Positions 249-63,686 of a DNA stretch of 64,000 nt are shown here, in pieces. Each line of letters starts with the position of its first letter. Positions within the stretch are counted from its first letter, which is position 1. The position numbers and the translations under genes are program-made. The notes below the pieces were generated by a model. It was not told the origin of the DNA. It saw only the letters and a program-made list of their open reading frames with translations, and did no database searches. This DNA comes from Octopus sinensis. Taxonomy: Eukaryota. The stretch spans positions 23,324,464 to 23,388,463 of the forward strand of contig NC_043011.1 in assembly GCF_006345805.1 (NCBI RefSeq), in the 5' to 3' direction.

Positions 249-293
249 GGACCACTGATGCGGTCACAGGAGTGTGACGAAAGAACTCTGGCC
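249..293 (+). ncRNA. Degenerate minimal type I hammerhead ribozyme motif (PLE-type)
   Basis: ggacca-CTGATGC-g-gtcaca-ggag-tgtgac-GAAA-gaac-TC-tggcc. Stem II is a perfect 6 bp and stem I is cca/tgg. Core A9 is replaced by C. A (TA)n tract starts about 120 nt downstream. Confidence 0.6.
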
Positions 294-411
294 GAAATAA
301 GATTAAGATTAATGTAAAAAATAAATAACACTGAAGCAAAGTAACACCAAATATATAGTGCGTGTGTTTTTATTGGCTAAACTGGCAAAATGACCATTCC
401 GAAATATAACA

Positions 412-530
412 ATATATATATATATATATATAATATATATATATATATATATATATATATATATATATATTATATATATATATATATACATACATATATA
501 TACATATATATTTGTATGTATGTATGTATG
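412..530. repeat. (TA)n/(TATG)n microsatellite
   Basis: Direct reading. Confidence 0.95.
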
Positions 531-904
531 AAGGAAGAGGGGTTTCGTGTGTGTATGTGAGAGAGAGTGAGAAAGAAAGAGACAGACAGACATATGCAAG
601 CAGGGAAAAGGAGAGGTAAAGTGGTCCCAACTGACACGAAACCAAGTAGCAAGTTCACTATTTGCCAGAAGCATTCAACCGCTCTCATCGTTTCCTGAAA
701 ATAAAAAATGCATGAAGTGCCACCGTACATTTGTCGATCACGGGAAACGATCAAAGTATAATCAAGATTACTGCATTTGCTTGAGTTAAATTCGATTTCG
801 AACGAAATGTACAAAAGAAATCAGTAATATACTTTATCCTGTTTATATAATAAAAGTCATTATTGTGAATTGTTAAAGAGATTCAAAGGCATACTGGTAA
901 CTTT

Positions 905-2900
905 TTATAAGTCTGGTGTAGTATTTCGGTTGACTTTCCTTAATGTTCGTATGTCTATTTCCTTTGCTCGTTAAATGCCATCATTTATTAATGATATTTG
1001 ATAATGTCTTTTGATTAGTATTGGTCTGAGTTCAAGGAGTCTTCGTACATGATTATAAGTGTCCGAAACTATGGTACAGATTCTTTTCGCTAGAATATAA
1101 GGTGTATTAATTTTTATGTGTTTGGGGTGGCATGAGTTGAATAATAGGTATTGTTTTGAATCTGTGGGTTTATAGAAGATCTCCGTTTCGATGTGGTTAT
1201 TAACTATTTTAATTAGGATGTCAAGAAAAAGGAGTTATTTATTGCTGTGCTCCATGGTGAGTTGTATGTTGCTATTGATATTGTTGAGCATTATTTTGAA
1301 ATCGAGAAGTTTGTCCGTGCTATCTTTCCAAAGTATAAAGCAATCGTCCAAATACCTCTTCCAGTTCTCCTTTAAATAGCAATGAAATGAGGTGCCATAT
1401 TTTTGTAGTGATGATTGGTATATTTTAAGTTCTAGGTAACCCATTACAAGGTTCGCAATCATTGGGGCAGCTCAGGTTCCCATTGCAATTCCACATTTTT
1501 GTCGATAGTAAACTGTATCGAACATGAAATAGTTTTTCAGTAGGATGAAATTGAGTGTTGCGATTATGAATCTGTGGTTAGTGCGTCCTGGGATCTCTTC
1601 TGGGCATTTTTCTATCCAGAGGGTGATTGCTTCTATACCATAATCGTGAGGGATATTGGTGTACAAGTTCACCACATCGAATGATACTAACAGGGTTCCC
1701 TCATTTATTGTGTTCAGGAGGTGGTCGAGCATGTCTAAGTCATCCCTGATGAAGCTTTTCACATATTTTAGAAACGGTTTGAATAAGATGTCGAGGAAGT
1801 TGCTCAAACGGTGGGTTTCACATGTAGGGCCAGCAATGATGGGTCTAAGTTTGAGGTCAATAGGGGGAGGAACATTAATGCATAGGTTTGGAGAAACTTT
1901 ACAAGCTTTACAAAAGCGAATACTGTATATAGATTTTTGTGTATTTTAGGTAATCCGTAGAATACACTTGGTTTGTATAAATTGGATAAATAGTCAACTT
2001 CTTTTTTAGTGAGGCCCTTTCCATGTATTTGAAGTAAGGAGGATAAGTTTTTAAGTGTCTTCTGTAAGTTGTATTGTACTATCTTCTCATAGTAAATATT
2101 ATTTTCCAACATGGCGAGTATTAAATTTCTGTAGTACTCTGTGTCCATCGTCACTACCGCACTTCCTTTGTCGGCTTCTTTAATGGTCAGCAGGTTTATA
2201 TCCTTTTTTAACTCGATTAAGTCTTTCCATTCATTTGCGCTAAGGTTAGATTTAATTCGTTGTTTTTCTAGGGTATTAAAAGGAAAATTGGTAATATGTT
2301 CACAAAAATCATCAAGTGCTTTATTTCTGCCTTTGTAGGACAGTATTCGCTTTTGTTTTTTACTATTGAGTCATCTTCGCTGGTGTAGTTGTGAAGTGCT
2401 TCTGGAGGCATAATTTTCGGCAGAAATCCATAGTATTATCCTTAATTTCATTCGGGTTCGATCTGCGAGAGATTGGTGTAAATTTTAAACCTCTTGCTAG
2501 AATTTTAGTTTGTGTAATACTTAAGGATTTTCTTTGATAAGTTGATTACTTTCGGTTGTTCTTGTATATTTTGTTCCATTTCACATCTCTGTTTCTCTAA
2601 TTTAGGTCTAAAAATGGTTGTAGTAGGTGGATTTTTGTGGAAAGTCTGTATTGTGTTTGGTTTGTTGAGGAGAAAATGGGTGTAAAATGTGTTTGTGGTA
2701 GTATGTTTGTGGTGGAGTAACTGTGTAGCGGACTAGATTATGATTGTACCGAGGGTTGTTATATTGTCTATGGTTGATGTGGTTTAGGTTAAATTTATTT
2801 TTAATATTGCAATGTGGAGGGAGAATATATGTTGTCTAGTTAGGTTGTGTTTAGTTGAATGCTTGAAGTATCCATGTTGAGGGTTAAGTCTCGGAGGTAA
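905..2900 (-). mobile_element. Penelope-like element (Neptune-type) reverse transcriptase region, frameshifted pseudogene, inverted relative to its endonuclease
   Basis: ORF pieces 1804-2154, 1472-1807 and 1235-1462 carry FYGLPKIHK, LVSFDVVNLYTNIPH, QKCGIAMGT and WKRYLDDCF. Manual translation continues with FYKPTDSKQYLLFNSCHPKH. Confidence 0.9.
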
Positions 2901-2934
2901 ATTCTTCCATTGATTGTGAAATTCTTCCATTGAA

Positions 2935-61174: not shown

Positions 61175-62640
61175 TAAGGGATGCTTTCCTTATTCAAACG
61201 GAATCGTGTTGAAGTGTTTGCGGTACATTGATAGAGAGGGAAGATTTGGCATTTCGAATTTATGTTTACAGGGCATTGGTCTAGGTATTTGCTTATGGGA
61301 ATTTTCCTAGTCGTGGGGTCCCGGATTTGTTGCCTGTGCACCGTTAGTCAGTCCCTCAAGGTTAAACTAGTTTGACCAATGTAGTCTCCACCACACCCTT
61401 GAGGACATAGATTAAGTTCTTCGAAGCACAGGTAAATGTTTGACCTGACTTAAATTTGTATGTTGAGCCCTCTAAGAGGAAGATGCAAGTTCCCTAGTTA
61501 GAGCGGTTTCACTTTTTGGCTAGTGGGGTTGTATTTTTGGTAGGTAATTTGGCACTGGTGAGTAATTTTTTTAGGGATTGCGGTTGTCTCTTGCTTTTGA
61601 TAATCCTATATGTTTCCAGTGCCTTTTTCATTCGCAAGTCTTTCGTAAGGAGGGGTAAGTTTTGGTGGATGACGTTGTATGCTTCCCTGTTCCTCGGACT
61701 GTGTGTTGATACGTAAGATAAAGTTTTGAGTGTGTCATGGTGCTTTCTTGTTTTCCGAAACTCTTGAATGTCTATCATTTTTGCACGTTCTATTCCGTTT
61801 TTGATTAGACTGGCCGGGTATTTTCTAGCTAGTAATGTGTTTTAAGTTCTTGGAGTCGCTTTTCTCGGGTTTCGGGATTTGATGCAATCGTGAAAATTCT
61901 TCTTGCTAAGTTAAACGGTATATTTATTTTAGTATGTTTTGGGTGGCAAGAGGAGAATAGAAGATATTGTTTTGAGTCCGTTGGTTTCAATTTCAGTATC
62001 TCTTTTTATGATTAAGATGTCCAGGAAGATGTTTGTGGCTGTATTCCACTGTGAACTGGATACTGTGGTTAATGCTGTTGGTTAAGTTTTTAAATTTTGA
62101 GAGTTGTTCAAGGTTATGTGGCCACAGAATGAAACAGTCATCCAGGTAGCGTTTTCAGTTGGTGAGTAAGTATTTTTGGAAGTTGTCTCCAAATTTCAGT
62201 CTTGCGATGTTCGTATATTTGGACTTCTAAGAATGCCATGACAAGGTTGGCAAAAGTAGGGGCTACCATCGTTCCCATCGCCGTGCCAGATTTTTGTCTA
62301 TAAGTGTTCTCGTTGAAGTTGAAGAAGTTTTTCTGTAAGATGAATTTTATTCCTTCAACGATGAATTCTTCTTCGATTCGGTCAGGAATATCATTTGGGA
62401 ACTTTTCCAGCCAACATTGTATCACTATTATTCCGTATTCGTGAGGAATCGAGGTGTAGAAGTTTGTTACTTGCTGGTTTTGTTCGGGAGATGGTTAAAA
62501 AATTTAGATCATCCCTTATAAAGCTCCGTATATGTCGGAGAATAGGTTTAAGGAGGACGTCAGTAAAGTTACTGAGTCTGTGTGTCTCACACGAGGCACC
62601 GGCCAGAACTGATCTCATTTTGAGATCTCTTGGGTGTGGA
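61175..62640 (-). mobile_element. Neptune-type PLE, RT-GIY-YIG pseudogene
   Basis: CETHRLSNFTDVLLKP, YRQKSGTAMGTMVAPTFANLVMA, RYLDDCF, PTDSKQYLLFSSCHPKH and FTCASKNLIYV..GCGGDYIGQT. Confidence 0.9.
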
Positions 62641-62762
62641 ATATATATATAACAAAAAGTAAATTATAAATTACGTTGCTCTCGATTGGATAAGATGAAT
62701 GTATATAGGACTGCAGGAGAGAAGCGCTCAAATGATATTGAGCCAGAGACACATATCAATAA

Positions 62763-63522
62763 TATAATTTAAGAACAAACATCGAATTCAGGTTAACGAA
62801 CATTATATATACACGCTTCTACACTTCACTACGTATAAATGATACCATGGCTTTCAAATGTAAAAGAAAAAAGAAACACCAGATAAAAATCATATATAAA
62901 AAATATAAAATACACAGGACCTGCCCAAAAAACGTATATAAAAATCGACTAAAAATTATCTAAAAAAGATTATTACAGTAAGTAAATCGACAAAAAATTT
63001 AAAGAGAAAAGTATATAAAATAGTGTGCAACCTTTTGAAACTCTGTTCATCCTGACGAGAGGGTCATTGCCTAAGATGCGTATAGCGTGCATGGAGGCAA
63101 CGGCAATGAACTCCCGAAATGGCCATAGATGTTAGATGTTAAATTACCTTTTGGAATGATTCGCGAAAATGTGGATTAGTTACCCGATTGGAGTCATATC
63201 ATGCTCCTGCAATTATCATGGACTACGACTATATTGACTTTTACATTTTATATATATAATTTTCATAGTTGGGTATAATTTTATTTTATATACTTTTCTC
63301 TTTAAATTTTTAGTCGTTTTACTTACTGTGATAACCTTTGTTTAGATAATTTTTAGTCGATTATTATAAACGTTTTCTGGGCAGGTCCTGTGTATTTTAT
63401 ATTTCTCTATATATGATTTTTTGACATTTGAAAGTCATGGTATCATTTATATGTAATGAAGTGTAGAAGCATGGATATATAAAGTTCGTTAACCTGAATT
63501 CGATGTTTGTTCTTAAATTATA
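62763..63522. repeat. Foldback element: ~250-bp inverted arms (62763-63022 / 63282-63522) enclosing a hammerhead
   Basis: The outer 39 bp (tataatttaagaacaaacatcgaattcaggttaacgaac) are perfectly inverted. The inner arms are visibly diverged. Confidence 0.9.
63048..63131 (+). ncRNA. Type I hammerhead ribozyme
   Basis: catc-CTGACGA-g..tcattgcc...ggcaatga..c-GAAA-tggcca-TA-gatg, with palindrome ATGGCCAT. Confidence 0.85.
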
Positions 63523-63649
63523 TATATGTATATATATATTATATATATATATATATATATATAGTGAGAATTTACAAAAAAAGACGAAGACGGGGAGTGT
63601 TTAAACAACAAGCAGATGTATTAGTTTAACGCACGGGAAGTGAGAAAGT

Positions 63650-63686
63650 CTTTTACGTTTCGAGCCTACAACTCTTCGACAGAAAG
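63650..63686 (-). ncRNA. Minimal hammerhead-like motif with core CUGUCGA, same family as 27341-27375
   Basis: cttt-CTGTCGA-a-gagtt-gt-aggctc-GAAA-cg-TA-aaag. Confidence 0.55.

Follow-up and report, generated by a model that had tools for sequence, protein, structure and literature searches.

Hammerhead-like folds pointing into TA repeats as probable tails of several Penelope-like element families in an Octopus sinensis locus

Why should about ten hammerhead ribozymes in a single stretch of octopus DNA each point into a (TA)n tract? The question arises from a window of 64,000 nucleotides of Octopus sinensis (contig NC_043011.1, positions 23,324,464 to 23,388,463 of the forward strand; all coordinates below are those of the window, families are named after their motif, and L numbers denote loci). 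We find that the folds are the tails of several families of Penelope-like retroelements (PLEs), a pattern already described. With a probability of roughly 0.85, the motifs mark the 3' pseudo-LTR ends of some nine families of retroelements, of which four are linked to PLE proteins and the others are probably derived from PLEs; insertion probably proceeds by GIY-YIG nicking of TA-rich repeats that are already in place.

Hammerhead-like folds and their distance to TA repeats

A type I hammerhead-like fold is present at all eleven coordinates listed in a preliminary description of the window, which confirms the motifs themselves. On the ribozyme strand, (TA)≥5 starts 9–118 nt downstream of the motif in 11/11 cases, and upstream a run lies within 135 nt in 1/11, compared with 7.5% of random window positions (binomial p = 4e-13 for the downstream 11/11). 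This agrees with the claimed spacing of about 10-120 nt. At 3516 and 63048, the run closest to the motif is an internal expansion of short length, and the terminal tract lies ~157 and ~388 nt off. A twelfth motif, 7366-7425(-), absent from the earlier list, is not followed by (TA)≥5 anywhere in the next 2.4 kb. The motifs had also been called sequence-unrelated. They represent nine dispersed repeat families of about eight lineages: 7920-7970(-)/9950-10003(+) and 59775-59861(-)/59977-60063(+) are inverted copies within one element each. The families of 27341 and 63650, whose stems II and III have a common design, are related at 72-74% over 114-130 nt. Single-strand MFE folding did not give the hammerhead shape for most window motifs, as expected for minimal forms, which are dimeric. 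Rfam listed no hammerhead among 150 of its 228 window matches and gave none on three motif-sized stretches; it is uninformative for such minimal motifs. Our strict descriptor recovered just 5/11 window motifs and misses decayed ones.

Because the window test was made post hoc, independent evidence was sought in a systematic 1.2 Mb sample from outside the window, which yielded 31 canonical hammerhead matches against 0 in reversed and 1 in shuffled sequence. The strand-aware scan against background that had been proposed earlier bore out the downstream excess: (TA)≥5 occurs within 150 nt downstream of 19/50 hammerheads and upstream of 3/50, the latter equalling the background of 7.2% (sign test p = 7e-5). 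Among relatives of the window families, TA lies within 300 nt downstream in 122/163 and upstream in 59/163. A chance association of spurious folds with repeats in a microsatellite-rich window might be argued from the TA coverage (4.1% of the window, 2.4% of the sample), from the lack of a hammerhead in the listed Rfam rows and the three short stretches, and from the 4/11 non-canonical cores. Against it stand the strand asymmetry, the reversed and shuffled controls, and a palindromic or near-palindromic stem III with pairing kept across families despite unrelated stems; the sample counts refute this explanation, which we regard as extremely improbable. The preferred reading has its own counterevidence, namely the 31/50 sample hammerheads without (TA)≥5 in the 150 nt downstream, one sample family (L254, L257, L259, L271, L319) without such a tract, and the 63048 family, in which TA lies within 300 nt downstream in 1/10 copies.

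Elements of the window and their PLE proteins

Four families are linked to PLE proteins, which sit upstream and in sense of the hammerheads: Hydra-clade (9956), Hydra-like (7461), Neptune-type (3516) and GIY-YIG (249). PLE identity was obtained by tblastn with natural open frames; the genome holds open RT+GIY-YIG frames of 777-796 aa. A Pfam search of 114 of the 234 window fragments gave no PLE domain. The window opens with the 3' end of a young PLE family (1..412, plus strand; fold 249-293, C at core position 9), followed by a TA tract at 413-529. Immediately beyond the left edge, in the window's own flank (L059:121-1029), there is a GIY-YIG-type ORF, and L333 contains one as well; 14 of the 40 scored matches, window copy counted, are 100% identical over 181 nt.

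The second element (848..3720), recognized with the open ORFs of L326/L331, is a broken Neptune-type PLE whose 5' portion is inverted. It comprises RT remnants on the minus strand at about 908-2530, GIY-YIG remnants on the plus strand at 2927-3347 and a plus-strand hammerhead with a G3-C8 core at 3516-3563, followed by (TA)29 at 3721-3778. The ORF lies directly upstream of this family's 3' end in L324, L325, L331 and L332. Translations of L331, L332 and L326 contain an RT with DKG, a CX2-5CxxC linker and a C-terminal CCHH GIY-YIG, and Pfam matched RVT_1 and GIY-YIG in the family, of which the window holds a broken copy; these motifs place it with the Neptune-type PLEs. It shares with them the DKG motif, the CX4CXXC linker, CCHH in GIY-YIG and the microsatellite bias, but differs in its family-fixed G3-C8 core, the family with open frames L326-L328 having U3-A8. 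A second broken Neptune-type RT/GIY-YIG copy lies on the minus strand between two TA runs (60327..62641; tblastn 61180-62726), and reading its 3' UTR revealed no intact hammerhead.

Two inverted hammerhead-like folds, 7366-7425(-) and 7461-7521(+), form an element at 7366..7543 that is followed by a TA tract from 7544; in L106, a Hydra-like endonuclease remnant lies upstream on the same strand. The neighboring 5'-truncated Hydra-clade PLE (7835..10008, minus strand) has its endonuclease at 9433-9937, folds at 7920-7970(-) and, as an inverted tailless copy, at 9950-10003(+), and flanking TA tracts at 7693-7834 and 10009-10127; its ~1 kb TA/TG-rich 3' UTR is collinear with L081 (82% over 1039 nt). 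In 8/8 translated copies, the C-terminal GIY-YIG lacks CCHH, one Cys stands between the GIY-YIG halves, and CxxC and CxH occur around the conserved E and N. The CxCX5C linker is found in 6/8 copies, among them that of the window; L077 and L080 have an altered second Cys. These motifs assign the family to the Hydra clade. With Hydra-clade PLEs such as Hydra-1_Obim (PMC8557442) it shares a C-terminal GIY-YIG without CCHH, the CxCX5C linker, a hammerhead-like fold in sense orientation close to the 3' end, a stem II closed by U.U, probable (TA)n insertion and an inverted 5'-truncated copy. Unlike them, our family has the long low-complexity 3' UTR and ~10 extra nt after the cleavage site, and its hammerhead sequence differs from the one tabulated for Hydra-1_Obim.

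The remaining families (27341, 63650, 16627, 59976 and 63048) gave no PLE ORF in 1.5 kb flanks of their top matches, where one weak endonuclease match was seen (L139). The pair at 16590..17078, with TA on both sides, combines a hammerhead at 16630-16712(-), bearing U4C in this copy, with an inverted plus-strand partner that lacks the CUGANGA half. At 27240..27455, a ~210-nt non-coding minus-strand element with a canonical minimal hammerhead (27341-27375) adjoins a TA tract at 27220-27239. Two hammerheads of one family, 59775-59861(-) and 59977-60063(+), in both of which stem II is long and closed by a U.U pair, form an inverted pair between TA tracts (59658..60095). Further on, a low-copy plus-strand element (62652..63518; 69 candidates) carries a canonical hammerhead at 63048-63131, whose stem III is palindromic, together with a tail copy in inverted orientation. 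The TA tract that closes it (63519-63563) is shared with a short minus-strand element of a very abundant family (63564..63703; fold 63650-63686, U at core position 6), which has TA on both sides. Several traits of PLE tails recur: two alternative 3' ends in the 249, 9956 and 59976 families, inverted pairs in the window, and partial tandems in L334 and L336. The earlier proposal of many PLE families, short non-coding copies included, is thus sustained: most of the ends are short and non-coding, four families are protein-linked, and the placement against (TA)n is directional genome-wide.

TA repeats as target or product

The 3' end is fixed within every family and gives way to host (TA)n; often there are two such ends with a short tail between them. 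The fixed ends fall a few to a few hundred nt past the hammerhead, and the 5' ends vary or bear an inverted copy. By analogy with published PLE work, the endonuclease would nick TA-rich DNA and reverse transcription would begin near the RNA 3' end and usually halt early, so that the resulting copies are short, non-coding and made up of scarcely more than the hammerhead. The ribozyme would not act on the repeat; it would point into TA because it lies near the element end that is copied first. Later insertions would reuse the TA tracts, so that elements stack. Cleavage by the hammerhead was reported to be dispensable for insertion in vitro and to need the protein (PMC11167929). The TA link does not require the ribozyme, since a tRNA-type SINE that lacks one likewise ends in TA at its 3' side (66/93). 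Hammerheads close to the 3' ends of PLEs are already tabulated together with (TA)n targeting, an octopus Hydra element included, by Craig et al. 2021 (PMC8557442), who report such targeting for hammerhead-bearing Hydra and Neptune PLEs; our scan reproduces this in a further genome. With this precedent and the SINE, the suggestion of a new ribozyme-plus-microsatellite system is not supported.

Could the TA tract instead be more product than target, made or lengthened at the 3' side on insertion by slippage or untemplated synthesis? In the 27341 family (29 relatives), a TA-type repeat adjoins the 3' junction in 28/29 copies and the 5' junction in 15/29, and a pure target model must explain the 14/29 TA-less 5' junctions, such as those of L002, L003 and L030, by deletion or edge insertion. 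The background-level upstream TA in the 1.2 Mb sample points the same way, as does the Hydra family, which copies its TA/TG-rich 3' UTR and so spreads TA-rich DNA internally. A host target is indicated by the 15/29 copies of the 27341 family flanked on both sides, and by copies within (TACA)n on both sides (L008) or (TAA)n (L056/L070), which are flanked by that repeat and not by TA. Moreover, TA abuts each of the two distinct 3' ends of a single family, and a detected hammerhead points into just 47/772 TA clusters of the sample, a minimum given that decayed motifs escape the descriptor. We therefore consider a mainly product origin unlikely. Empty sites were not found at L003, where contigs from 4/4 runs cross the 5' junction, so that the site is filled, or at L067, where run X5 spans the junction, X3 ends at TA, X10 ends before reaching it, and no joint skipping the element was found with repeats masked. 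The 47/772 clusters and the lack of an empty site thus give no support to the elements as a source of the host's TA tracts.

The short 27341 and 63650 families raise a related question, as they might be discrete non-autonomous elements (SINE-like or solo retrozymes) mobilized in trans by PLEs and not truncated coding PLEs. The top 29 copies of the 27341 family measure 181-219 nt with clustered 5' ends, four close copies in the sample measure 167-216 nt, neither family has a linked ORF in 1.5 kb flanks, and monomeric retrozyme copies are on record (bioRxiv 10.64898/2026.07.22.740005). However, the diverged members L221 and L242 are longer on the 5' side by at least 130-200 nt, L044 (63650 family) shares with L227 a longer upstream stretch that is rich in CA, and retrozyme-typical tandem arrays were unseen for both families in the loci read. 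On this evidence a discrete nature is quite possible, if somewhat short of an even chance. Non-LTR retrozymes (the same preprint; see also PMC7229834) are likewise non-coding type I hammerhead repeats that stem from PLE ends. These are defined by tandem units, each with a complete hammerhead, whereas the window copies are solo or inverted and fall outside this definition.

Core variants of the predicted ribozymes

The core had been described as kept throughout. A type I minimal hammerhead combines the core CUGANGA / GAAA / UH with stems I and II. CUGANGA is found in 7/11 window motifs, while 249 (C9), 3516 (G3-C8), 63650 (U6) and the 16627 copy (U4C) deviate. Three of these changes are family traits: CUGAUGC occurs in 18/19 relatives of 249, G3-C8 in 18/19 relatives of 3516 (GUGAWCA 17, GUGGUCA 1), and the 63650 family counts 13,318 exact copies with U6 vs 140 with A6. 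The 16627 family has CUGAAGA in 10/18, U4C being seen in the window copy. In the 7964/9956 family the core is CUGAAGA in 7/7 and TA lies downstream in 6/7, but stem I is displaced by the ~10 extra nt in 7/7 relatives, and its folds are thus the weakest ribozyme candidates of the window. Scans of the 1.2 Mb sample for A9X and control cores stayed at or near control level. The consulted parts of the study of metazoan PLE hammerheads by Cervera & de la Pena 2014 (PMC4209133) describe the same highly variable stems, extra base after A9, palindromic stem III, mostly solo copies, U3-A8 covariation and inverted pairs 100-700 bp apart; U6, C9 and G3-C8 cores and a TA test are absent from those parts.

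The main pattern is expected PLE biology, to which our data add a quantified example and little more. What stands out is a single family, very abundant in the genome, in which the predicted ribozyme is fixed for a change at a core base that is otherwise nearly always the same. This family may have kept a hammerhead fold with U6 for the near-invariant A6 through several subfamily turnovers, with positions 7 and 17 drifting as in working ribozymes. We tentatively suggest, as a rather speculative reading, that this natural core variant may be active, perhaps with the help of a protein, or that its fold may be weak in catalysis and retained as a recognition signal for the PLE reverse transcriptase; with G3-C8 and C9 elsewhere, the genome would then offer a natural mutational series on the role of the PLE hammerhead. 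High-copy families with fixed non-canonical cores are ready substrates for asking what this hammerhead does. If the U6 or C9 forms are non-cleaving yet fold-conserved in >10,000 copies, the motif is likely a protein-recognition structure; if they cleave, the hammerhead consensus and the descriptors used in genome searches need widening.

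Hammerhead-like motifs and their TA tracts

The preliminary description listed about ten sequence-unrelated hammerheads directed into (TA)n at 11 sites of the window, and a hammerhead-like fold was indeed seen at 11/11. A run of at least five TA units, (TA)≥5, lies within 135 nt downstream, i.e., on the ribozyme strand, of all 11 motifs and upstream of one (background 7.5%). The distances from motif end to run are 118, 61, 21, 85, 9, 46, 101, 117, 31, 117 and 86 nt; in 3516 and 63048 (families are named by the window position of their motif) this nearest run is a short internal expansion, and the terminal tract lies ~157 and ~388 nt off. 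TA tracts make up 4.1% of the window, whose GC content is 36.7%, within an assembly of 2.72 Gb. A twelfth hammerhead-like motif at 7366-7425(-), absent from the earlier list, is not directed into TA. Rfam gave no hammerhead match among 150 of the 228 rows for the window, nor for three motif-sized stretches.

All the motifs are members of dispersed families, nine in number, for which first-look candidates amount to at least 3346, 1227, 519, 879, 1070, 1412, 69, 1346 and 1019. The nine represent about eight lineages rather than ten unrelated ones, because each of two motif pairs in the window consists of inverted copies of a single element and the 27341 family is a relative of the 63650 family. 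Of 163 relatives, 122 have TA in the 300 nt downstream and 59 in the 300 nt upstream, figures biased toward intact young copies as the top matches were scored; self matches, 17 matches confined to the endonuclease stretch of the 9956 query, nine weak 63048 matches and one unmatched 16627 match are excluded.

An independent sample comprised 120 stretches of 10 kb, evenly spaced in the genome (loci L201-L320). Here, the type I descriptor yielded 31 matches with the canonical core CUGANGA (reversed 0, shuffled 1), four with G3-C8 (0 and 1), eight with U3-A8 (3 and 1) and 11 with non-A6 cores (2 and 0). All but two non-A6 matches outside the U6 family (nine matches) were pooled, giving 52, some of which share one locus and are thus not fully independent. 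In the 50 with 150 nt on each side, (TA)≥5 occurred downstream in 19 and upstream in three (background 7.2%; sign test p=7e-5); within 300 nt, the values were 24/45 and 7/45 (background 13.6%). The strand bias is genuine, yet far from universal. One canonical-core family (L254, L257, L259, L271, L319) is an exception, ending in AT-rich sequence without long (TA)n. Several unrelated families have in common a short motif 3' of the hammerhead (L263, L264, L265, L278, L308, L318), an inverted repeat in L278 and L318, which is possibly a protein-binding or initiation hairpin.

The window also contains a direct duplication of ~1.17 kb (41336-43621; 98.6%) holding a 28-29 nt minisatellite, a 615-nt near-palindrome (41354-41968), and a direct repeat of ~650 nt (29871-31392; 94.7%) adjoining a long TA-rich tract. 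LINE remnants lie at 37366-39548, 49982-50479 and 35679-36296 and include an endonuclease with RT (Pfam RVT_1), a C2H2 tail and an ORF1 bearing a zinc knuckle; Tc1/mariner transposase remnants lie at 32828-33654, 34128-34835 and 57373-57836.

Links to Penelope-like elements

Element anatomy and orientation were established, as were links to proteins of Penelope-like retroelements (PLEs) for four families. The 3516 3' end follows Neptune-type ORFs with DKG, a CX4CXXC linker and a CCHH GIY-YIG; the window copy is broken, its 5' part inverted. The element at 7835-10008 encodes a Hydra-type endonuclease, judged against the clade definition given in part of PMC8557442; its TA/TG-rich 3' UTR is copied along, and an inverted copy lacks the tail. 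The 249 family is preceded by a GIY-YIG-type ORF (L333, L059) that received no Pfam score, and the 7461 family by a Hydra-like endonuclease remnant (L106). Within 1.5 kb flanks of the top matches, no PLE ORF was resolved for families 27341, 63650, 16627, 59976 and 63048. Families 249, 9956 and 59976 have two fixed 3' ends, each adjoining TA, which fits the PLE tail that a section of PMC11167929 attributes to two reverse-transcription starts.

Near-identical open Neptune-type frames of 777-796 aa in L326, L327, L328 (contigs C11, C1, C9752), L329 and L330 suggest recent activity. The L326 family hammerhead carries U3-A8, and in L330 an upstream ORF of 479 aa overlaps the RT frame. At L336:2950-4900, a 1024-nt tandem unit combines a 59976-family end, an opposite-orientation U6-family element and a TA-rich spacer, all co-duplicated.

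The TA tract as target or product

PMC8557442 names (TA)n as preferred target, places hammerheads close to 3' ends and describes Hydra-1_Obim, a 2507-nt element with a terminal hammerhead and (TA)n preference. According to parts of PMC8557442, PMC4209133 and PMC11167929, AT-rich DNA is nicked by GIY-YIG, reverse transcription starts internally, 5' truncation and inversion are frequent, and the hammerheads are dimeric and of low activity. The element 3' end, with the predicted ribozyme nearby, would be joined first to the nicked repeat, and the ribozyme would point into TA because of this position. Copies sited in (TACA)n or (TAA)n are flanked by that very repeat, which favors a host target. 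In the 27341 family, a TA-type repeat adjoins the 3' end in 28/29 copies and the 5' end in 15/29; growth of the tract or deletion of the target may account for the 14 one-sided copies. A search for empty sites at L003 and L067 (four runs each) found none.

The strand bias and the PLE links support the preliminary description in part. Its larger claim of a ribozyme-plus-microsatellite mobile system is limited, because a high-copy SINE carrying tRNA-type A and B boxes also ends in TA (within 40 nt of the 3' end in 66/93 sample copies) and a hammerhead directed in was detected at few of the sample's TA clusters (at least 47/772). This type of SINE also occurs in L222, L154 and the window near 10128-10290; its TA tails may provide tracts that PLEs target, or the SINE may itself rely on the PLE machinery.

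Core variants

The preliminary description had the core kept throughout, which holds for 7/11 window motifs; the other four are non-canonical. In the 63650 family, position 6 is U, with 13,318 exact genome matches vs 140 with A (backwards-pattern control 0). U6 was present in 14/14 sample copies in register, two further copies having small column-shifting deletions; position 7 is any of the four bases and position 17 A or U. Pairwise identity averages 89% across the hammerhead block, a value that overstates conservation since the block is partly the search anchor, compared with 77% for the tail and 71% for the upstream part. G3-C8 occurs in 18/19 copies of the 3516 family and in one unrelated sample family. 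C9 occurs in 19/19 of the 249 family and may be a single founder change, as this family is young. Parts of PMC4209133 describe variable minimal hammerheads, mostly solo or inverted, and U3-A8; natural U3-A8, A6C and U10.1-U11.1 are on record in PMC3088659, and G3-C8 appears in the accessible text of PMC3884650 as an engineered variant. We found no report of natural A6U or G3-C8 in literature of incomplete coverage, so that their novelty is uncertain.

Taken together, the association of TA with hammerheads is real, statistically solid and an ordinary outcome of known PLE biology, and its interest rests on the testable core variants.
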